Positions 352 through 10,705 of a DNA stretch of 64,000 bases are shown here, piece after piece. Position 1 is the first letter of the stretch, and each line of letters starts with the position of its first letter. Under the pieces are notes generated by a model. It did no database searches and had not been told where the DNA came from. It was given only the letters and a program-made list of their open reading frames with translations. Both the position numbers and the translations under genes were made by a program. Location: contig CAZBZV010000008.1 of assembly GCA_964496505.1 (NCBI GenBank), positions 14,328 through 78,327 on the forward strand. Direction: 5' to 3'. Source of the DNA: an uncultured Ignavibacteria bacterium. GTDB taxonomy: Bacteria > Zixibacteria > MSB-5A5 > JAABVY01.

Positions 352-1386
352 ATGAAATATATCGATCTGCGTTCCGATACAGTAACCCGTCCATCAGATA
401 AGATGCGTGAAATAATTGCCTCAGCCGAGGTGGGGGATGATGTTTTTGGGGATGATCCCACGGTAAACGAATTGCAGGAAAAAGTGGCAAAATTATTCGG
501 TAAAGAGGCCGCTCTGTATGTGCCCTCGGGTTCGATGGGAAATCTTGTAGCAATCAAGACCCACACCAATCCCGGCGAGGAGGCGATCTTCGAAGAGGAT
601 TGCCATTCGCTTAATTACGAAGCCGGTTCTATGGGCGCGGTGGCGGGACTGGTCTCGCATACATTCCGTGGAAATCATGGGGTCATGACTCGTGAGCAGG
701 TCGAGCCGTATATCAAAAAGAAGTCCCTGCATACTCCACCTACGACTTTGATTGCCCTGGAGAACACTCATAATCATGCGGGCGGTACTATCTATCCACT
801 GGAGGAGATCAAGAAACTGCGTGATATGGCCGACGAGCACGGCCTTAAGATGCATCTCGACGGCGCCCGTATCTGGAATGCTTCGATCGCCACCGGAATT
901 ACTCTGGATGAATACTGCCGGTATTTCGATTCGATCCAGTGCTGTTTTTCTAAAGGTCTGGGAGCGCCAATCGGATCGATTGTTATCGGGGATGGTGAGT
1001 TCATCGAAAAAGCCCGCCGCTTCCGCAAAATGTTCGGCGGGGGTATGCGTCAGGTTGGAATACTTGCCTCTGCTGCTATTTATGCGCTTGATAACAATAT
1101 GCCTCGTATGAGCGAAGATCATGAAAATGCTTCCTTCCTGGCTGAAAACCTGGCCAAAATAGACGGTATTGATATTGATCTTGAATCGGTTCAGACCAAT
1201 ATCGTAATCATGAATATCGCTTCATCGGGAAAAGAGGTTCCGGATGTGCTCTCGGAGCTTAAGGACATGGATGTGCTGGCAGTGCAGTTCGGCGCCACCA
1301 AAATCCGCTGTGTTACACATCTGGATCTCGATCGCGCAGATATCGAAACAGCGATAGAGAAGTTCAAAGCGGTCTTTAGCAGTTAA
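352..1386 (+). CDS. ltaE: low-specificity L-threonine aldolase (PLP-dependent)
   Basis: 344-aa ORF. IDLRSDTVTRPS, GDDVFGDDPTVNELQ and SGSMGNLVA are hallmark threonine aldolase motifs. Full length, with stop at 1386. Confidence 0.85.
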   Translation: MKYIDLRSDTVTRPSDKMREIIASAEVGDDVFGDDPTVNELQEKVAKLFGKEAALYVPSGSMGNLVAIKTHTNPGEEAIFEEDCHSLNYEAGSMGAVAGLVSHTFRGNHGVMTREQVEPYIKKKSLHTPPTTLIALENTHNHAGGTIYPLEEIKKLRDMADEHGLKMHLDGARIWNASIATGITLDEYCRYFDSIQCCFSKGLGAPIGSIVIGDGEFIEKARRFRKMFGGGMRQVGILASAAIYALDNNMPRMSEDHENASFLAENLAKIDGIDIDLESVQTNIVIMNIASSGKEVPDVLSELKDMDVLAVQFGATKIRCVTHLDLDRADIETAIEKFKAVFSS

Positions 1387-1411
1387 AAATCATATCTAAT
1401 CGAAATATCCC

Positions 1412-1448
1412 TTGCTTTATGACATATATTTGGCTATTTTGCCAAATA
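1412..1448 (+). promoter_or_regulatory. sigma70-like promoter with a candidate ArsR operator
   Basis: The promoter reads TTGCTT (1412-1417), 17 nt spacer, TATTTT (1435-1440). Perfect inverted arms TATTTGGC (1427-1434) and GCCAAATA (1441-1448) bracket the -10. The site lies about 30 nt upstream of the arsR ATG. Confidence 0.35.
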
Positions 1449-1477
1449 ACCAATAATATATTTGCGTAATGTAAGCG

Positions 1478-1801
1478 ATGGACAAGAAAACAAAAAATCT
1501 ATTTGAAGCCAGAGCGAAGATCATCAAGGCCCTGGCACATCCGGCCCGTCTGTTTATAGTCGATCAGCTATCGCACGGAGAGAAATGCGTATGCGAGTTG
1601 ACAGAGATGATCGGTTCCGATGTTTCGACAATATCGAAACATCTCGGAATACTCAGGAATAACGGAATCATCTCTTACGAAAAGCGCGGCACACAGGTTT
1701 TCTATTCGCTTAGGGTGCCCTGTGTGCTGAACTTCTTCAGTTGTGTGGAATCGGTAATCAGCTCCAATGCCCGTGAGCAGTTGTTACTGCTAAAGGAATA
1801 G
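1478..1801 (+). CDS. arsR: ArsR/SmtB-family metalloregulator
   Basis: 107 aa with the winged-helix signature ALAHPARLFIVDQL...CVCEL...STISKHLGILRNNGII. The CVC metal(loid)-binding motif sits in helix 3. It is the first gene of the ars operon. Confidence 0.85.
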   Translation: MDKKTKNLFEARAKIIKALAHPARLFIVDQLSHGEKCVCELTEMIGSDVSTISKHLGILRNNGIISYEKRGTQVFYSLRVPCVLNFFSCVESVISSNAREQLLLLKE

Positions 1802-1835
1802 CTGAAGGTCACATGAGCCGGATAATTTAAATATT

Positions 1836-3134
1836 ATGAGATGGCAGTCTGAATGGAAGCCGCTGGTTTTAATCAGCGGGGTGTTTCTTGCATTTTTCTA
1901 TATCCCCTTTAATGTAACGGGTATCGAAAATGCTATTATGGAAGCTTTGAAGCTGACCCAATGGTATGCCCGCGAGCATGTTATATTATGCCTGATACCG
2001 GCTTTTTATATCGCCGGGGCGATTGCCGTATTTATCAGCCAGGCCTCTGTAATAAAATATCTCGGTGCGAAGGCCAACAAGGTGCTTTCCTATGGAGTCG
2101 CCTCGGTTTCGGGTACGATTCTGGCTGTCTGTTCCTGCACGGTACTGCCGCTTTTTGCGGGGATTTACAAGATGGGCGCGGGGATTGGTCCCGCCACCGC
2201 CTTTCTTTATTCCGGCCCTGCCATAAATGTTCTGGCGATAATCCTGACCGCCAGAGTCCTGGGGCTTGGATTGGGGGTTGCGCGGGCGGTGGGCGCAATC
2301 GTTTTCAGTATTATAATCGGCCTGATTATGCATCTGATTTTCCGCAATGATGAAAAAGAGAAAGCAAGCGCTCAAATGGCTATGCCGGAATCGGATGACG
2401 GGCGTTCACTTTTGCAGAATGGGATATATTTTGCGGCCATGATTGCGATTCTTGTATTCGCCAACTGGGGCAGGCCGGATGAATCGGCGGGAATCTGGTA
2501 CACAATTTATTCGTATAAATGGATCATTACCGGTTTTGCAGCAATCTTGCTGGGCATTGTATTGGTTTTCTGGTTTAAAATGAAATGGTGGAAACTAATT
2601 CTGGTCGCAATTCCCGCTATTGTTCTGGCCATCGCAGTGCCGCATGAGCCAATGATCGCTTTTGCCGCGGCAGTAATCGGATTTTCGATCGTTACCGCAA
2701 CATCAAAAGGCGAATCTTCGGAATGGTTTGATCAGACCTGGGGCTTCACCAAGCAGATTCTGCCGCTTCTATTTGCCGGTGTCCTGATCGCGGGGCTGCT
2801 TCTGGGTCGTCCCGGTCATGAAGGATTGATACCCTCGGAATGGATCAGCAGTTCGGTTGGAGGAAATTCGTTGTGGGCAAACCTTTTCGCATCAGTGGTG
2901 GGGGCTTTTATGTATTTCGCGACTTTGACCGAGGTGCCGATTTTGCAGGGATTAATCGGCAACGGCATGGGCAAAGGACCGTCGCTGGCGCTTCTGCTGG
3001 CCGGGCCTGCCCTGTCACTGCCAAACATGCTTGTCATACGGTCTGTGATTGGAACGAAGAAGACATTTGTTTTTGTATTGCTGGTGGTAGTTATGGCGAC
3101 TATCTCCGGCCTGATATATGTTTCGTTTTTCTAA
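1836..3134 (+). CDS. COG0701/DUF318-type permease (ArsP-like) with a CSC motif
   Basis: 432-aa polytopic membrane protein. AVCSCTVLPLFAG and the repeated SGPAINV / AGPALSLPN half-repeats are typical of the permease family that pairs with the small redox-active disulfide protein. Organoarsenical efflux (ArsP) is a possibility, not shown. Confidence 0.7.
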   Translation: MRWQSEWKPLVLISGVFLAFFYIPFNVTGIENAIMEALKLTQWYAREHVILCLIPAFYIAGAIAVFISQASVIKYLGAKANKVLSYGVASVSGTILAVCSCTVLPLFAGIYKMGAGIGPATAFLYSGPAINVLAIILTARVLGLGLGVARAVGAIVFSIIIGLIMHLIFRNDEKEKASAQMAMPESDDGRSLLQNGIYFAAMIAILVFANWGRPDESAGIWYTIYSYKWIITGFAAILLGIVLVFWFKMKWWKLILVAIPAIVLAIAVPHEPMIAFAAAVIGFSIVTATSKGESSEWFDQTWGFTKQILPLLFAGVLIAGLLLGRPGHEGLIPSEWISSSVGGNSLWANLFASVVGAFMYFATLTEVPILQGLIGNGMGKGPSLALLLAGPALSLPNMLVIRSVIGTKKTFVFVLLVVVMATISGLIYVSFF

Positions 3135-3172
3135 TAAAAACCGATTTTGGATGTACTTAAGGAGCGTTTTAA

Positions 3173-4408
3173 ATGAAGAATGATTCAGGCCCCTCGACAA
3201 ACTGGAAGGCATATGCAATAATCAGCCTGCTTGGAATTCTTGCAATTACGCTTGCGGCGGCAATTTTCAGGCTCTGGGTGTTGACCGCAATCCCGATAGG
3301 ATTTTTATTTGGCTTCTTTCTTCAAAAAGGTGATTTGTGCGGATCATCGGCATTCAGCGAGATTATAATGATGCGCGATTCGGGCAAGATTGTCGGTTTA
3401 TGGGTGCTGATTGTAATTGCCATGCTTGGAATCGGCTGCCTGGATTTGCTGGGATGGATCAAGTTGAATCCAAAACCCCTTGTATATCTAAATTACATAA
3501 TAGGCGGCGTTATTTTTGGTTCAGGCATGGTGCTGGCGGGCGGATGTATTAGCGGCTGTCTGTACAAAGGCGCGGCCGGCAATCTCAACTCGATCGCGGC
3601 GCTTCTAAGTATCCCTGTGGGAGTTATGCTGGTGGAGTTTGGTCCTCTCAACGGTGCACATCTTTGGATGAAAAAGCATATCATATCGCTGGCAAGCGGA
3701 GAGAAAGTGAGCCTGTATGCGCTCACCGGACTGCCATTCTGGGCTCTTGCATTGATTTTCGCAGGCATCACCTTTGCATTTGTTATCGCTCTTAAGCGAC
3801 GAAAACCAAAAGCAGATCATTCAATCAAAAAGGATGCTGCGCCTTTGCTCAAGCGGGCAATGACCAGGTCCTGGAGGCCCTGGGTGGCCGGCGTTGCTAT
3901 CGGACTTTTGATGGTCCCGGCTTATCTGTCATCAGCGGCCAGCGGACGAAATTATCCGCTTGGTGTTACTCATGGGGTTATGCAGGCAGAGCTGCTCCTG
4001 ATAGATAACGGTTTTAACCATGTTTATTCAAAAAAACCGGCTGAAGCAGCCAGTATAAAAAACGCAATCATTCCCCCATCAGAGAAAAAAGTGAGCGGAA
4101 AAAAAGTGGTCTGGTGGCTGGTGGCGGGTGTATTGAGCCTGATGATTGGTTCATGGGTCTCGGCAAGGATGGCCGGACGGGCCAGGCTTCTTCCAAAACC
4201 ACCTGACGAAATCCTGATCGCCCTGCTGGGAGGATTGATGATCGGAGCGGGCGCGGCTATTGCGGGAGGATGTGTGGTCGGAAATATTATGTCCGGCTGG
4301 GCTTTAATGAGCGTTGGCACTATTATATTTGGAGTGGTGGTCGTATTAACAAATTGGGCAACAACATATATCTATATGATGGGCGGGCAGCGAGTTCGAA
4401 AGACTTAA
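3173..4408 (+). CDS. YeeE/YedE-family (sulfur/selenium-compound transport) membrane protein with two fused domains
   Basis: 411 aa. Each half carries the GDLCGSSAF / AGGCISGCLYKG and AGGCVVGNIMSG cysteine-loop motifs characteristic of YeeE/YedE. Confidence 0.8.
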   Translation: MKNDSGPSTNWKAYAIISLLGILAITLAAAIFRLWVLTAIPIGFLFGFFLQKGDLCGSSAFSEIIMMRDSGKIVGLWVLIVIAMLGIGCLDLLGWIKLNPKPLVYLNYIIGGVIFGSGMVLAGGCISGCLYKGAAGNLNSIAALLSIPVGVMLVEFGPLNGAHLWMKKHIISLASGEKVSLYALTGLPFWALALIFAGITFAFVIALKRRKPKADHSIKKDAAPLLKRAMTRSWRPWVAGVAIGLLMVPAYLSSAASGRNYPLGVTHGVMQAELLLIDNGFNHVYSKKPAEAASIKNAIIPPSEKKVSGKKVVWWLVAGVLSLMIGSWVSARMAGRARLLPKPPDEILIALLGGLMIGAGAAIAGGCVVGNIMSGWALMSVGTIIFGVVVVLTNWATTYIYMMGGQRVRKT

Positions 4409-4437
4409 CAGATTGTTTTATGATAGGAGTGAAGCAT

Positions 4438-4671
4438 ATGAAGAAAATAGAAATACTGGGCACCGGCTGCCCTAAATGCCAGAAAATGGCCGAGTGTGCC
4501 GAGGAAGCCGCCAAAGAGCTTGGGATCGAATATGAGCTGAAAAAGATTACCGATATCGCTGAAATCACAAGCCACGGTGTTATGATGACTCCGGCTTTGG
4601 TGGTTGACGGCAAGGTAAAAATCGTGGGAAAAGTGCCCTCGAAAGATGAGCTTAAAAATCTAATTGCATAG
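4438..4671 (+). CDS. small redox-active disulfide protein (thioredoxin fold, CPKC), cytoplasmic
   Basis: MKKIEILGTGCPKCQ...VMMTPALVVDGKVK is the classic TM0996/MTH895-type mini-thioredoxin. I chose the ATG at 4438, preceded by GGAG at 4426-4429. The tracked ORF start at 4270 overlaps yeeE and is rejected. Confidence 0.85.
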   Translation: MKKIEILGTGCPKCQKMAECAEEAAKELGIEYELKKITDIAEITSHGVMMTPALVVDGKVKIVGKVPSKDELKNLIA

Positions 4672-4695
4672 TTCTCGAATGATGGGAGGATCATA

Positions 4696-5211
4696 ATGTT
4701 TAAAAGAGCGACACTCATACTAATTCTTTTACTTTTTGCGTTTTCCGGACTCGTCGTGGGCCAATCCTCGGAAAAGCAGGAATCACAAAAATTGCCGCTT
4801 AAACCTTTCACCTCAGAAGAGAAGGTTACCGATTCGACCGCGGCCGCAAAGACTGAGGCAAAGGAAAAAATCGAAAGCAAGGTTATTGCCTACTACTTCC
4901 ACAGCACCCGCCGCTGTGCGACCTGCAAAAAGCTGGAGGAGTATGCCAGGGAGGCGATTGAGGGCGGCTTCGAGGATGAGCTGGAAAAAGGCACACTGGA
5001 ATTAAAGGCGGTTAATACCGACGAGGATGAAAACAAGCATTATATCGACGATTACAAGCTCTATACCAAGGCTCTTATATTATCCAGAGTGAAAGAAGGT
5101 GAAGAGGTTGAATGGGTCAATCTCGACAAGATATGGAAGCTGGTTGGCAACGAGGACAAATATAAAGCTTATGTCACAAGCGAGCTTGAGGAGTTCCTGG
5201 GAGAGAATTGA
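4696..5211 (+). CDS. exported thioredoxin-like protein with CATC motif (ArsF-like family)
   Basis: Signal peptide MFKRATLILILLLFAFSGLVVGQ, a low-complexity linker, then YYFHSTRRCATCKKLEEY...DDYKLYTKALIL. I recall this pattern as the 'ArsF family' thioredoxin-like protein. Not verified by search. Confidence 0.6.
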   Translation: MFKRATLILILLLFAFSGLVVGQSSEKQESQKLPLKPFTSEEKVTDSTAAAKTEAKEKIESKVIAYYFHSTRRCATCKKLEEYAREAIEGGFEDELEKGTLELKAVNTDEDENKHYIDDYKLYTKALILSRVKEGEEVEWVNLDKIWKLVGNEDKYKAYVTSELEEFLGEN

Positions 5212-5906
5212 TGGAGAGCATTCTTATCGGGATCGGTTCGGCGTTTTGGCTGGGGGTGTTAACCTCGGTCAGCCCCTGCCCTCTTGCGACAAATATCGCG
5301 GCCATATCATATATCGGAAAGCGTGTATCCAATCCGCGAATGGTCGTGCTTTCGGGTATGTTATATATGCTCGGAAGAGTGGTTGCATACCTGGGGCTGG
5401 GAATTCTGATTGTAGCGAGCGCATTGTCGATTCCGGAAATCGCCTGGTTTTTGCAGAAAAATATGAACCAGTTTCTGGGGCCGATACTGGTGATTGCAGG
5501 CATTTTACTTCTGGGCTTTATCAAATTCAGTCTTCCCGGCGGAGGTATCAGCGAGAAAATGCAAAAGCGGGTCGAGCGTTTGGGAATCTGGGGCGCGGGC
5601 CTTCTGGGTATCCTGTTTGCGCTTTCCTTCTGCCCGGTGTCGGCGGCGCTTTTCTTCGGCAGCCTGATTCCCCTCTCGGTTAAACACGGATCAAGTTATA
5701 TGCTGCCGTCGGTTTATGGCATCGGTACCGCTCTGCCGGTGATCGTTTTTGCATTTATAATCGGTTTTGGAACTCATTATCTCAGCCAGGTGTTTAACAA
5801 AATCACAAAGTTTGAGCTGTGGGCGCGGAAAATTACCGGGATAATTTTTATAGCCGTCGGGATTTATTATATACTCATATATTACTTTGGGATAACCCTG
5901 TTTTAG
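5208..5906 (+). CDS. CcdA/DsbD-family membrane thiol:disulfide electron transporter (ArsG-like)
   Basis: 232 aa with about 6 TM segments. One Cys sits in TM1 (SVSPCPLATN) and one in TM4 (LSFCPVSAALF), as in CcdA. The ATG overlaps the upstream stop (TGATGG). Confidence 0.75.
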   Translation: MMESILIGIGSAFWLGVLTSVSPCPLATNIAAISYIGKRVSNPRMVVLSGMLYMLGRVVAYLGLGILIVASALSIPEIAWFLQKNMNQFLGPILVIAGILLLGFIKFSLPGGGISEKMQKRVERLGIWGAGLLGILFALSFCPVSAALFFGSLIPLSVKHGSSYMLPSVYGIGTALPVIVFAFIIGFGTHYLSQVFNKITKFELWARKITGIIFIAVGIYYILIYYFGITLF

Positions 5907-6015
5907 ATTTTGGGATTTTCGCCAATATGTAATATACTTCGAATGGAAAATTGCAAATCCTAAATGGCCGCTATCCCGGCCATTAAAACACGGCCGTATT
6001 ACGGAGATGATGTGA

Positions 6016-7206
6016 ATGAGTAAGAAAAAACGCAAACAGAGCAAGAACACGAAAAAAACGGCTTCGCAGAAAAAGGAGCCGGAAATATATCAAAGGAACC
6101 ATAACCGTATTTATGTTATCCTGGCAGGAATAGTAGTTATAGTTGCCGCCGCGGTTATATTATTCAGCATGGATTTCGCAGAACTCGGAGGCAATAATGC
6201 CGGCGCAACTCTGGATCAATCCTCAGAGGCCGAATCCAATGCCAACCAGCCTCCCTCTGTCAAGGTAGGCGGTCCCTCAATATATCTCCCCGAGAAATCG
6301 TATGACTTTGACACAATTCCCGAGGGTGCGAAGGTGTCTCATACCTTTATAGTAAAAAATACAGGCACCGAGCCCCTGGAGCTAATCCGTGCCAAGGGAT
6401 CGTGAGGATGCACGGCGGCCGTACTGACAGAGACGGCCATTCCCCCGGGCGGGGAAGGTAAAATTGAGGTAACCTTTGATAGCAAAAAGAGACGTGGAAA
6501 ATCTATTAAGCATATAAGTGTCGAGTCAAACGATCCGGTCAGCCCGAAAGAATCTCTGACTATCTCTGCCTATGTCGAGGCAGAATTCGGCTTCGAAACC
6601 AATTCGCTTAACTTGGGCAGGATTCGTAAGGGCGAGTCTGTCAGCAGGACAGCAACCTTGCTTATGAAAGATACCTCCAAACGCGATTTGCTTGAAATCG
6701 GCTCAAAGTCTTCTCAAATTGATGTACAGATTGTTGATAACGATGATGAAAAGGATGGGGGAATTGAGGTTGAAGTAACCGTTAATGCAGACGATTCTTT
6801 CGGCAGGCTTGATGAGCGTGTTAGCGCCAAATTGACTGATGGTTCTCATCCCGAGTCTATCCTGCGGATTATTGCAAATATCATCGGGAATGTGGAGGTG
6901 GATCCGCGATCAATACACTTTATAATCGACACGGCACAGGCAGAGCCGGATGTTCCAATTCGAGAAGTAAAGGTCTTCAGCAACAGCGAGAACGCAGGGT
7001 TTGGGCTTTTGAGTGTTGAGGACACAAAAGACCTTTTGACGATTAATGCTGATACGATTATCGCCGGCAAGCAATACCGAATTTTGACAAGGCCGAATGA
7101 AAAGGCCATGAAACTAAATCGAATAACCTCAGGCTCAGTCAGGATAAAAACGGATGATCCAGAACAACCTGAAGTAAGCTTCAGTTATAGGATTGTTCTG
7201 CGCTGA
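6016..7206 (+). CDS. membrane-anchored DUF1573-domain protein with an in-frame UGA at codon 130 (candidate selenocysteine); read as one 396-aa product
   Basis: ORFs 6016-6405 and 6613-7206 are in the same frame, and there is no stop in the 207 nt between them. The translation across the TGA (6403-6405) reads FIVKNTGTEPLELIRAKGS-[TGA]-GCTAAVLTETAIPPGGEGKIEVTFD. That is the DUF1573 '...SCGCT...PG..G.I.V.F' core with the first Cys replaced by TGA. The N-terminus is a Lys-rich tail plus one TM helix. Confidence 0.55.
6403..6438 (+). promoter_or_regulatory. UGA codon plus SECIS-like stem-loop
   Basis: UGA at 6403-6405, then an 11-nt spacer. GGCCGU (6417-6422) pairs with ACGGCC (6433-6438). Inner C-G and U-A pairs are possible, which would leave a bulged A and a G-initiated apical loop GACAG. 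Confidence 0.45.
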
Positions 7207-7224
7207 AAATGACATGGAGGATAT

Positions 7225-7671
7225 TTGATAGATTCGAATGACAGGCTGAAAATCCTATTTCTTTGTACCGGCAATTCCTGCCGCAGCCAGATGGCCGAGG
7301 GATGGGCACGGCATCTTAAGGGCGATAAGATCGATCCTTACTCCGCCGGCATAGAAACTCATGGCTTGAACCAGAATGCGGTCAAAGTCATGGCCGAGGC
7401 AGGCGTGGATATATCGGGGCATAAATCCAAACATGTGCAGGATTTGCTGGATATCGGCTTTGACTATGTTGTTACGGTCTGCGATCATGCCAGCGAAAAT
7501 TGCCCGATTTTTCCGGGCAAGGCGAAAGTTATTCACAGGGGCTTCGATGATCCTCCCAGGCTGGCCAAAGACGCAAAGAGCGAAGAGGAAGCATTGGGAC
7601 ATTACAGAAGAGTGCGGGATGAGATCAGGGATTTTGTGAAAACACTGCCACAGGCATTGGGGCAAAAATGA
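7225..7671 (+). CDS. arsC: arsenate reductase, thioredoxin-coupled LMW-PTPase type
   Basis: [19 protein letters not shown]-loop plus [12 protein letters not shown], the Cys10/Cys82/Cys89 arrangement of pI258-type ArsC. The tracked start at 7225 is TTG, so the exact start is uncertain. Confidence 0.85.
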
Positions 7672-8741
7672 AAAAGCGCTTATCATTTCTGGATAGATTT
7701 CTGACATTGTGGATTTTCCTGGCTATGGCGGTCGGCGTAGGTGCAGGGTATTTCTTCCCAAACGTTGCCGGTTTCTGGAATAAGTTCAGCGTGGGCACTA
7801 CCAATACTCCGATTGCAATCGGGCTTATACTTATGATGTATCCGCCTCTAGCGAAAGTACGCTATGAGGAACTGGGCAAGGTCTTCCGCAATTTCAAAAT
7901 ACTTGGCCTGAGCCTGGTGCAGAACTGGGCTATCGGTCCGGTCTTGATGTTCGTGCTGGCGATTGTTTTCCTTCACAACTACCCGGAATATATGGTAGGC
8001 CTGATTATGATCGGTCTGGCACGATGTATCGCCATGGTTATCGTATGGAATGACCTGGCCGAGGGTGACCCGGAGTATGCCGCCGGACTGGTGGCATTTA
8101 ACTCTGTCTTTCAGGTGATATTCTATTCGGTGTTTGCATGGATTTTTGTGACCAAGCTGCCTCCCCTGTTTGGATTATCGGGAGCGGTGGTGGATATTAC
8201 TATCGGCGAAATCGCCAAAAGTGTTTTTATATATCTGGGGATACCGTTTATAGCCGGAATTATTACCCGTTTCTCGTTAATCGCTCTCAAGAGCAAGGAA
8301 TGGTATCATTCTGAATTCATACCGCGTATCAGCCCGATAACATTGATTGCGCTGCTGTTTACGATCATAGTCATGTTCTCGCTCAAGGGCGAATATATTG
8401 TCAAGATACCGCTTGATGTTGTCCGTATCGCGATTCCGCTGTTGATTTATTTCGTGTTCATGTTCCTGATCAGCTTTTTTCTCAGCAAGAAGGCGGGGGC
8501 CAATTACAGCCAGTCGGTAACTTTGAGCTTTACAGCCGCCTCGAACAATTTCGAGCTGGCGATCGCGGTGGCGGTTGGGGTCTTCGGTATCAATTCGGGT
8601 GTGGCTTTTGCGGCGGTAATTGGCCCGCTGGTGGAAGTACCGGTCTTGATAGCGCTTGTCAATGTCGCTTTCTGGATCAGGCGAAAGTTTTACGGCGATG
8701 AGCTGCAGATGTCGCCAAGGCAGGTGTATGAACGGGGATAA
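7668..8741 (+). CDS. acr3: ACR3-family arsenite efflux transporter
   Basis: 357 aa. [13 protein letters not shown]...[22 protein letters not shown] and the overall 10-TM pattern are typical of ACR3. The ATG overlaps the arsC stop (ATGA). Confidence 0.9.
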
Positions 8742-9552: not shown

Positions 9553-9762
9553 TTATTCCCGTACCAGAAGAACATTTATCGCTTTTACGATGACTTTTAC
9601 ATTTTCGCCTTCTTTTATTCCGAGGTCCTCGATTGATTCTGTGGTCATAACCGAATTCATAACGGAATCCGCCGGGATTTCAAGGGTAACCTGTCCCATG
9701 ACATCGCCCTTTTTGATTTTCGTAATCTTACCTTCGATTTGATTTCTGGCGCCGTATTTCAT
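9553..9762 (-). CDS. mop: TOBE-domain molybdate/tungstate-binding protein (Mop-like)
   Basis: 69 aa. SARNQ-type start (GARNQIEGKITKIKKGDVMGQVTLEI...KAINVLL) is the single TOBE/Mop fold signature. Confidence 0.8.
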   Translation of the reverse strand: MKYGARNQIEGKITKIKKGDVMGQVTLEIPADSVMNSVMTTESIEDLGIKEGENVKVIVKAINVLLVRE

Positions 9763-10460: not shown

Positions 10461-10481
10461 GCGGAAGCTTTCAAAAATTTA

Positions 10482-10554
10482 TGGAGCCGAGGGGAGTCGA
10501 ACCCCTGACCTCTTGACTGCCAGTCAAGCGTTCTCCCAACTGAACTACGGCCCC
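10482..10554 (-). tRNA. tRNA-Ala (anticodon GGC)
   Basis: The reverse complement is GGGGCCGTAGTTCAGTTGGGAGAACGCTTGACTGGCAGTCAAGAGGTCAGGGGTTCGACTCCCCTCGGCTCCA. It has a 7-bp acceptor stem with the G3:U70 alanine identity pair, anticodon loop CTGGCAG and T-loop GGTTCGACTCC. CCA is not encoded. Confidence 0.9.
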
Positions 10555-10705
10555 AGAGGTTTTTCCAATATATTCTCTATCGGTATTCTGTCAAGCCATT
10601 TTATACCGATTTTAAGATGGTTTGATCCGATTATATTTGCAAACTTTAGGTTGATTTCAGTGTAAAATGATGTAAATTCCGGAAAATAAACCCGCGAGGA
10701 GAGAC

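Follow-up and report, generated by a model that had tools for sequence, protein, structure and literature searches.

An OS_HP2-type selenoprotein linked to arsenic resistance genes and a possible ArsEFG reductant relay in a Zixibacteria ars operon

The window analysed here is a 64-kb stretch of contig CAZBZV010000008.1 from an uncultured bacterium of the Zixibacteria. Between positions 1478 and 8741, ORF calling (ORF, open reading frame) identified nine tightly packed, co-directional genes on the plus strand. They constitute an arsenic resistance (ars) operon with the order arsR, arsP (cluster 1), a gene for a YeeE/TsuA-family channel, arsE, arsF, arsG, a gene for a DUF1573 selenoprotein of the OS_HP2 family, arsC, and acr3. 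The selenoprotein belongs to a subfamily that is conserved in arsenic islands across four phyla. We propose that it is an extracytoplasmic arsenical-handling protein that would be supplied with reductant by a relay consisting of ArsE, ArsG and ArsF, and we assign a probability of about 0.5 to this overall picture.

The OS_HP2 gene and its signals for the insertion of selenocysteine (Sec) are the following (SECIS, selenocysteine insertion sequence; nt, nucleotides):

6016-7206, plus strand: gene of the OS_HP2/DUF1573 selenoprotein (396 residues; NF041425, PF07610), read through one in-frame TGA.
6403-6405, plus strand: UGA selenocysteine codon, located at a TGA column of the homologue alignment.
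6417-6438, plus strand: SECIS hairpin 1, which begins 11 nt downstream of the UGA and contains covarying pairs.
6440-6456, plus strand: hairpin 2, UUCCCC-CGGGC-GGGGAA, over the I-P-P-G-G-E codons.

Read through, 6016-7206 is a frame of 396 codons that is interrupted by one stop only, at 6403-6405, where the sequence reads KGS-stop-GCTAAV. A TGA is found at the aligned column in 51 distinct homologues from Zixibacteria, Ignavibacteria, Gemmatimonadota, Glassbacteria, Deltaproteobacteria/Myxococcota and others, and the amino acid sequence is conserved on both sides of the codon among these homologues (27-89% identity). The same column contains TGC or TGT in 33 more distant homologues (Brocadia, Verrucomicrobia, Geobacter and others). 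All close homologues in the databases are truncated entries that start right after the motif; re-translation of their contigs gives an in-frame stop at the same column. Judged by these alignments, the TGA at 6403-6405 is a real Sec codon. If it were an ordinary stop, 6016-6405 and 6613-7206 would be two genes or a pseudogene, and gene callers do split the gene in this way in every database entry. The window has no start codon between the TGA and position 6613, however, and conservation across the codon, the Cys in the same column of the Cys forms and the covariation of the SECIS-like element rule this reading out; we regard it as extremely improbable. All public protein records examined for the subfamily (P0001-P0023) are either truncated at the Sec codon or divided into pieces around it, and N-terminal pieces of 129-136 residues are annotated as separate "weak DUF1573" genes. 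The gene of this subfamily is systematically mis-annotated in the databases.

In hairpin 1, double-sided changes occur in five of the seven pairs. Its covariation score is 0.171; shuffles gave 0.079, with none of 500 reaching the observed value, and slid partners gave at most 0.098. Hairpin 2 is nucleotide-invariant in 50 of the 51 Sec forms, synonymous sites included (ATTCCCCCGGGYGGGGAA), in genomes with a GC content of 47-73%. The Cys forms encode I-P-P-G-G-E with other codons, and the synonymous conservation of hairpin 2 is limited to the Sec forms. A compensatory change from C-G to U-A is present in hairpin 2 of loci L049 and L092, which also replace PPGGEG by PPGEEG; two other Sec forms have a one-sided C-to-U change that keeps a G-U pair. 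From this pattern, hairpin 2 appears to be a second, unusually distal SECIS-associated hairpin that constrains the protein sequence. Equivalents of hairpin 2 are present in about 50 loci, for example at L001:9972-9988. An Rfam search with 6350-6520 gave chance-level matches only, and neither hairpin is covered by an Rfam model.

The DUF1573 protein falls in the named OS_HP2 selenoprotein family (NF041425; PMC1976440). With Cys put in place of Sec, it scores 102 bits with NF041425, which is borderline for a cut-off of 100, and it scores 93.9 bits with PF07610 (cut-off 26.1). OS_HP2 has been listed as a selenoprotein family with unassigned function since 2007 (Zhang and Gladyshev, PMC1976440), and a 2026 review lists "DUF1573, UGC" (PMC13188914). 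The N-terminus contains 12 Lys or Arg among the first 31 residues and is cytoplasmic; one strongly hydrophobic transmembrane helix follows at residues 32-50, and everything beyond it is predicted to lie outside the membrane, as expected for a type-II anchor. U130 and C132, which form the motif U130-G-C132, are the sole Sec and Cys residues of the protein. By topology prediction and codon alignment, the protein is extracytoplasmic and has a Sec-Gly-Cys motif, in agreement with an earlier note on this DNA, which had described a membrane-anchored DUF1573 protein with a (TGA)-G-C motif. An AlphaFold2 (AF2) model of the 35%-identical Cys homologue P0011, not of the window protein, has a pLDDT (predicted local distance difference test) of 88.5 and predicts three tandem immunoglobulin (Ig)-like beta-sandwich domains. 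In the PDB, only generic tandem-Ig proteins match this model.

For the analysis of gene neighbourhoods, homologues of the nine window proteins and genes from relatives were mapped onto all 94 fetched loci, 80 of which originate from a scan of species-representative genomes. The OS_HP2 subfamily, which has a KGS-U-GCTAAVLT-type motif, is represented by 29 distinct loci from Zixibacteria, Ignavibacteria, Gemmatimonadota and Glassbacteria. At 22 of them, ars genes occur within the fetched flanks in differing gene orders, and 18 of the 29 have arsC and/or acr3. By comparison, an ars operon was found at none of 56 control loci, which encode another Sec clade or Cys forms of DUF1573. The difference between 22/29 and 0/56 gives a Fisher p of ~1e-14, a value that is uncorrected for phylogeny, with gene orders that vary between phyla. 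At 12 of the 29 loci, both arsF and arsG are present together with OS_HP2, and the adjacent ArsR has the classic ELCVC site in L019, L027, L029 and L030. The DUF1573 gene and arsEFG, which the earlier note had joined with the ars genes in one system, are thus repeatedly linked to such genes in relatives.

Three arrangements can be distinguished. In the first, which is that of the Zixibacteria (the window, L001, L012 and L033), the order is arsR-arsP-(yeeE)-arsE-arsF-arsG-OS_HP2-(arsR)-arsC-acr3. The second is found in Ignavibacteria and others (L004, L008, L014, L016, L025 and L092). Its 5' part consists of (RND-yeeE)-arsE-DGC-arsF-arsG-arsF2 (RND, resistance-nodulation-division) followed by arsR, and its 3' part of genes for a secreted protein of 253 residues, an FtsX/MacB_PCD permease, a LolD-like ATPase and OS_HP2, followed by arsC-acr3. 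The third arrangement is minimal and combines acr3-arsR with the four-gene ABC/OS_HP2 module (ABC, ATP-binding cassette; L006, L022, L024 and L032). A different solution is found in L029, a metagenome-assembled genome (MAG) of the Gemmatimonadota: positions 850-6468 encode OS_HP2(Sec), arsR, arsC, arsR, an ArsP_1 permease, a PF02683 CcdA-like protein, a secreted thioredoxin-like protein and a small ArsD-like protein. Its secreted protein is Thioredoxin_6-like and homologous (E 1e-8) to the 253-residue protein encoded by the first gene of the ABC module. L029 is an independent convergence on the functional theme of the window with different families. A secreted protein with a thioredoxin fold, either ArsF or the 253-residue type, is thus a recurrent companion of OS_HP2.

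The ABC module lies directly upstream of OS_HP2 in 15 of the 29 subfamily loci. In module order, its products are the secreted, thioredoxin-like 253-residue protein, the MacB_PCD/FtsX permease, the LolD-like ATPase and OS_HP2(Sec). An ArsR-headed module with all four genes spans L008:6814-9470, and others are found in L004, L006, L010, L014-L017, L021, L022, L024, L025, L032 and L092. The 253-residue protein has a Cys-rich C-terminal tail (GCCPSGSSQSCGP); it has no significant match in Pfam (one sub-threshold match, PF24878) and none in NCBIfam. The four-gene module has the appearance of an arsenic-linked ABC system of type VII, hitherto undescribed. It is conceivable that OS_HP2 is a periplasmic accessory subunit, namely a substrate catcher or adaptor, of an ArsR-controlled exporter of the MacB/Lol type, and that it has been orphaned in the lineage of the window, where its adjacency to arsEFG would be functionally meaningless. 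The position of OS_HP2 directly after the secreted thioredoxin-like protein, the permease and the ATPase in about half of the loci suits this explanation, as does the finding that no such ABC genes were detected in the 64-kb window, in which 20 large ORFs among the 32 listed beyond 12 kb were scanned; the ABC genes could also sit elsewhere in the genome. However, four lineages of Zixibacteria, represented by the window, L001, L012 and L033, have retained OS_HP2 in the position between arsG and arsC. Identity is 41-89%, and neither the Sec codon nor either of the hairpins has been lost, which argues for selection without ABC genes in cis. We consider it improbable that OS_HP2 is an orphaned exporter subunit. 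With respect to a role in arsenic handling, such a subunit would be partly compatible with the picture of a relay-fed OS_HP2 that we prefer.

The candidate relay precedes the selenoprotein gene in the operon:

4438-4671, plus strand: arsE, encoding a cytoplasmic thioredoxin of the MTH895 type with 77 residues (TIGR00412.2, 108.6 bits, cut-off 62).
4696-5211, plus strand: arsF, encoding a secreted protein (NF040494, 115.4 bits, cut-off 60).
5208-5906, plus strand, with the ATG at 5211 as the more likely start: arsG (NF040495 equivalog, 297.9 bits, cut-off 200; PF13386 DsbD_2, 62.5 bits).

By these scores, 4438-5906 is a complete and already named arsEFG module. The alternative reading of the earlier note, according to which 4696-5906 encodes homologues of ArsF and ArsG, thus proved correct in that both genes pass the NCBIfam cut-offs and would be annotated so by the NCBI models. 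Its statement that a third partner is missing does not apply, since the mini-thioredoxin scores as MTH895/ArsE. SaoT and HUIPC were rejected as assignments of the mini-thioredoxin, because the scores are far below the respective cut-offs.

ArsE contains the motif CPKC at residues 11-14, matches PDB entry 1ILO (E 1.1e-18), and is predicted to have no signal peptide, transmembrane helix or hydrophobic segment. In ArsF, a signal peptide and a low-complexity linker precede a thioredoxin-fold domain that contains the motif CATC (C74, C77). In the family alignment, a hydrophobic signal sequence and an invariant R-C-x-T/S-C are found in 32 of 32 members. PDB sequence searches with ArsF and ArsG gave no match, and for this reason a fold search was run with ArsF. 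In its AF2 model the domain has a pLDDT > 90, and the top Foldseek matches in the PDB are nearly all thioredoxin-fold proteins, mostly thioredoxins and protein disulfide isomerase (PDI) domains (probability 1.0, E ~1e-4). ArsG has six predicted helices and exactly two Cys, which are located in SPC24P of helix 1 and FC142P of helix 4; the positive-inside counts of Lys plus Arg (9 versus 2) favour an N-out/C-out orientation. All elements of a CcdA/DsbD-type shuttle are consequently encoded in cis, namely a helix 1/helix 4 Cys core, a cytoplasmic thioredoxin donor and an extracytoplasmic thioredoxin-fold acceptor with CxxC. The series of a cytoplasmic thioredoxin, a two-Cys membrane protein of the CcdA/DsbD type and a secreted thioredoxin-like protein, which the earlier note had recognized, is borne out by profile, topology, fold and PDB matches alike.

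A different role has been assigned to this module. Chen, Zhang and Rosen reportedly described in 2019 (Environ Sci Technol 53:6182), for Shewanella putrefaciens 200, the reduction of a nitro group by ArsE and ArsF and efflux by ArsG; the nitro group would be that of trivalent roxarsone or nitarsone, the exported compounds would be aromatic aminoarsenicals, and OS_HP2 would be an unrelated neighbour. The scores given above were obtained with NCBIfam models from that work, arsR-arsP-arsEFG stands alone in L094, and ArsP itself belongs to a family of organoarsenical exporters. In the citing literature, ArsEFG is credited with organoarsenical resistance (ref. 12 in PMC9144182). The sequences themselves point elsewhere. 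Because ArsF is secreted and ArsE is cytoplasmic, the two cannot form a single soluble nitroreductase. Moreover, scans of Pfam and NCBIfam with ArsE, ArsF and ArsG matched only thioredoxin-type CxxC folds and no flavin or metal cofactor domain family, ArsG shows the diagnostic two-Cys, six-helix pattern of CcdA, and an ArsF-ArsG pair also occurs without nearby ars genes (L093). Synthetic nitroaromatic arsenicals would, in addition, be an unlikely natural substrate in the environments of these MAGs. Nitroreduction and efflux by ArsEFG next to an unrelated OS_HP2 are for these reasons unlikely in our view. An electron path from thioredoxin via a CcdA-like protein to a periplasmic thioredoxin is the more natural reading of the arsEFG sequences, which does not disprove the published phenotype.

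Variants of the module occur in the Ignavibacteria-type loci. A second ArsF paralogue is encoded directly 3' of arsG (L008:5597-6079, L004:5681-6154, L092:9204-9686; NF040494, 110.8 bits), such that ArsG has a secreted CxxC protein on both sides, and a gene with a DGC domain is located between arsE and arsF. In the ArsF homologue P0133 (298 residues), the signal peptide is separated from the ArsF domain by a long insert of repeats rich in Cys and His (CPHSK..., CENCPHKKDGK...); the insert suggests a secreted ArsF that carries a metal- or metalloid-binding part. At L093:5225-6869, the ArsF-ArsG pair, in which ArsG also matches PF02683 (DsbD_TM), is accompanied by a further ORF of 157 residues, and a T4_deiodinase-like gene is found about 6 kb away. 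The T4_deiodinase family also has selenoprotein members.

ArsE could also serve mainly as the reductant of a thioredoxin-coupled ArsC, or as a partner of ArsP, instead of being the donor of ArsG. ArsC is an arsenate reductase of the low-molecular-weight protein tyrosine phosphatase (LMW-PTP) type, which is thioredoxin-dependent, and it possesses all three catalytic Cys of this type, that is, a CX5R P-loop and a downstream Cys pair. Thioredoxin_3 genes adjoin arsC-acr3 without arsFG in L010, and arsP directly adjoins arsE in L012, L033, L092 and L094. On the other hand, arsE-(DGC)-arsF-arsG is syntenic in all loci with arsFG, including the Ignavibacteria loci without arsP. That ArsC or ArsP is the main partner of ArsE is therefore rather doubtful; the two roles are not mutually exclusive, and ArsE could supply ArsC or ArsP as well as ArsG.

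In the mechanism that we propose, the core of the operon would operate through sensing by ArsR, reduction of arsenate by ArsC and export of arsenite by Acr3. Cytoplasmic ArsE would reduce, by means of its CPKC motif, the two membrane-embedded Cys of the CcdA-like ArsG, which would pass the reduction on to the CATC motif of secreted ArsF. ArsF would then keep extracytoplasmic thiols and selenols reduced, among them the Sec130-Gly-Cys132 pair of OS_HP2, which is by sequence the only candidate client of ArsF encoded in cis. Selenols bind As(III) avidly. On the outer side of the cytoplasmic membrane, the selenol/thiol pair of OS_HP2 may bind trivalent arsenicals or act on them by redox chemistry. 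In other lineages, OS_HP2 is the product of the fourth gene of the ArsR-controlled MacB-type ABC module, the first gene of which likewise codes for a secreted thioredoxin-like protein, and there it would work with that exporter.

Several observations weigh against this picture. The tie between ArsF and OS_HP2 is drawn from sequence and gene context, and the published assignment of ArsEFG differs from ours in its roles for all three proteins. L094 contains arsR-arsP-arsEFG alone and no OS_HP2, L093 has the ArsF-ArsG pair in a non-ars context, and in L006, L022, L024 and L032 OS_HP2 is part of ars loci that contain no arsFG within 10 kb. No ars genes were found at six subfamily loci (L018, L020, L023, L026, L028 and L031), and the related Sec clade of Deltaproteobacteria and Myxococcota is not linked to ars genes. 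The structural view of OS_HP2 is taken from a model made for a Cys homologue with 35% identity, not for the window protein, and the predicted Ig-like fold offers no hint of catalysis. With these points in mind, we infer an electron flow through ArsE, ArsG and ArsF, and consider the link from ArsF to OS_HP2 and the binding of arsenic by OS_HP2 possible rather than probable. Our furthest-reaching proposal is more tentative still: OS_HP2 would be a Sec-dependent selenol/thiol clamp that captures or reduces periplasmic arsenicals as the terminal client of secreted thioredoxin-like proteins, ArsEFG would be a CcdA-type reductant relay for such components and not a system of nitroreduction plus efflux, and together with the ArsR-controlled MacB-type module these components would form a periplasmic branch of arsenic resistance.

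The second Sec clade of OS_HP2, which is not ars-linked, comprises L034-L057, L067 and L083 and has the motif RARGG-U-GCTAAVVS. In eight loci of this clade, a PiT/PHO4-like permease is encoded about 1.7 kb downstream. ORF clustering in the GC-rich Myxococcota loci yielded mostly noise, and only the cluster of the PiT/PHO4-like permease looked real.

The remaining genes of the operon and the putative regulatory sites are:

1427-1448, plus strand: perfect inverted repeat TATTTGGC-N6-GCCAAATA upstream of arsR, overlapping a promoter-like site at 1430-1457.
1478-1801, plus strand: arsR, repressor of the ArsR/SmtB family (NF033788, 85.4 bits, cut-off 55; PF01022, 52.4 bits).
1836-3134, plus strand: ArsP-type permease of cluster 1 (PF03773, 246.6 bits).
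3173-4408, plus strand: channel of the YeeE/TsuA family (Sulf_transp; PF04143, 195.5 bits), with nine predicted transmembrane helices.
5963-5984, plus strand: perfect inverted repeat AATGGCCG-N6-CGGCCATT in the 109-nt gap between arsG and the OS_HP2 gene (5907-6015), the only long gap of the operon.
7225-7671, plus strand: arsC, LMW-PTP-type arsenate reductase (PF01451, 69.5 bits), with the P-loop CTGNSCRS and the Cys pair CDHASENC.
7668-8741, plus strand: acr3, arsenite efflux permease (TIGR00832, 455.4 bits, cut-off 282.8).

The gene identities are near certain. The search with NCBIfam and Pfam profiles recovered every family proposed in the earlier note, and the Cys motifs named there are all present (CSC at residues 99-101 of the permease, CPKC, CATC, and SPC24P and FC142P of ArsG). 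The ORF coordinates likewise agree with its description of co-directional genes with gaps of 0-109 nt and overlapping starts at 5208 and 7668; in operon order, the gaps are 34, 38, 29 and 24 nt, an overlap, 109 and 18 nt, and an overlap. The number of genes has to be corrected from ten to nine, which is also the number in that note's own list. A tenth gene is obtained solely by splitting the DUF1573 gene at the TGA, as ORF calling that stops there cuts it into 6016-6405 and 6613-7206.

ArsR has a Cys pair in the sequence GEKCVCELT that corresponds to a predicted C-V-C site of the As(III) type in the region of the DNA-binding helix. ArsP cluster 1 has been described as containing LAV before a transmembrane C(S/T)C and the N-terminal motif HV(L/I)xCLxPAFxIAG (Yang et al. 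2015, PMC4435449). The permease matches PF03773, and its sequence motifs HVILCLIPAFYIAG and LAV-CSC fit this description, which places it in cluster 1. Its assignment to the SO_0444 or SaoE family was rejected, as the scores are far below the cut-offs. The channel, previously described as a double-domain YeeE/YedE protein, has one full-length match to PF04143 (residues 52-396 versus profile positions 1-310 of 310) and conserved pore-type Cys at 56, 125 and 367. Its scores are below the cut-offs of the TsuA models (NF052577, 162.3 bits, cut-off 400; NF041049, 106.5 bits, cut-off 645) and of the YedE/FdhT models (NF033796, 67.8 bits, cut-off 350; TIGR04112, 24.2 bits, cut-off 200). A selenium importer of the YedE type was rejected because the score is below the cut-off and the channel is nearer to TsuA. 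The operons of the closest relative L012 and of L033 lack yeeE, which is therefore an optional member and no fixed part of the system. ArsC scores 151.1 bits with the equivalog model TIGR02691, which is below the cut-off of 174.3 and still makes it the best-scoring family.

The same operon is found in other Zixibacteria with protein identities of 55-95%, a recurrence that argues against an arrangement due to chance. The nearest relative is the Zixibacteria MAG contig L012 (89-99% protein identity). The GC content is uniform along the operon. Among the 20 large ORFs scanned of the 32 listed beyond 12 kb, no mobile-element genes, Sec machinery or MacB-type ABC genes were found; outside the operon, those large ORFs that were scanned are housekeeping-like (SecA, CstA, a GGDEF protein, a sugar ABC system). 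No tRNA-Sec was found within the 64-kb window. The ars operon is chromosomal, probably arsenite-induced, and assembled from separable modules. The inverted repeat at 1427-1448 and the overlapping promoter-like site are candidates for the ArsR operator and the operon promoter. The repeat at 5963-5984 is possibly an internal regulatory site; the same gap contains a promoter-like site at 5910-5938, and separate regulation of the 3' half of the operon is possible. In L001 and L013, a second arsR is found instead, between OS_HP2 and arsC. Since promoter and terminator scans of the window gave counts no higher than expected from shuffles, the operon boundaries are deduced from gene spacing and synteny. 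Just 3' of the operon, an ORF of 69 residues (9553-9762, minus strand) was judged by eye to be Mop/TOBE molybdate-binding-like. A tRNA-Ala(GGC) gene at 10481-10555 (minus strand) is located just downstream, and the stretch of 9-10.5 kb has a lower GC content (0.38).

The family of every gene of the operon has been described, and arsEFG and OS_HP2 have already been named. No paper linking DUF1573 to arsenic resistance was found in the literature searched. Besides the conservation of the OS_HP2 subfamily in arsenic islands, what appears to be new is its regular association with secreted thioredoxin-fold proteins and a MacB-type ABC module, and the structural argument for ArsEFG as a relay of the CcdA type. 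The locus is a clear lead for experiments and not yet a proven new system. Most descriptions of arsenic resistance place the chemistry in the cytoplasm and let efflux follow. In the locus and its relatives, a conserved selenoprotein, secreted proteins with a thioredoxin fold and, in many lineages, an exporter of the MacB type are placed on the outer side of the membrane under the control of ArsR, which points to a periplasmic step that has not been described. OS_HP2, for which no functional context had been available since 2007, thereby obtains a first one, as does, more broadly, DUF1573, a large family with a conserved C-G-C. The analysis also raises a testable doubt about the roles of ArsE, ArsF and ArsG, whose names are now being spread by automatic annotation, and it has the practical consequence that the truncation of the examined subfamily entries at the UGA can be recognized as mis-annotation.

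Compared to ArsEFG of Shewanella putrefaciens 200, the module of the window is alike in that all three proteins pass the curated cut-offs and that the genes are adjacent in the order E-F-G inside an ars operon. The comparison was made via the NCBIfam models. In contrast, the module of the window is flanked by arsP, yeeE and a selenoprotein gene, and the topology and fold of its ArsF and ArsG are more in keeping with a reductant relay than with a permease and a soluble nitroreductase. The pathways CcdA-ResA, CcdA-StoA and DsbD-CcmG/DsbC share with the window a cytoplasmic CxxC thioredoxin, a six-helix protein of the DsbD superfamily and a secreted thioredoxin-fold CxxC protein. They differ in that ArsG matches PF13386 (DsbD_2) and not the canonical PF02683, in that the donor in the window is an MTH895-type protein of 77 residues encoded in cis, and in the context, which is arsenic resistance and not cytochrome c maturation or sporulation.

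The channel resembles TsuA/YeeE and YedE with respect to its full-length PF04143 domain, its nine predicted helices, and the Cys in the motifs GDLCG and GGC. However, it stays below both equivalog cut-offs (162 versus 400 and 68 versus 350), and it adjoins arsE instead of having a TusA/YeeD-like partner. In the SAO system and in the ABC-transport selenoproteins described in a preprint by Haft (10.1101/2022.07.06.499078), selenoproteins of anaerobes are likewise clustered with ArsP-family exporters, small thioredoxin-like proteins and ABC transporters, and both SAO and the system of the window have been proposed to handle organometals or organometalloids. The proteins of the window are nevertheless below the cut-offs for SaoE, SaoT and SaoA, a MerB-like lyase is absent, and OS_HP2 is not among the families described in that preprint. 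With the OS_HP2 family (PMC1976440; NF041425; PMC13188914), finally, the selenoprotein of the window shares the DUF1573 domain, Sec in the motif U-G-C and the existence of Cys homologues. Its subfamily is distinguished by two extra predicted Ig-like domains, an N-terminal membrane anchor, and its location in ars loci of four phyla.

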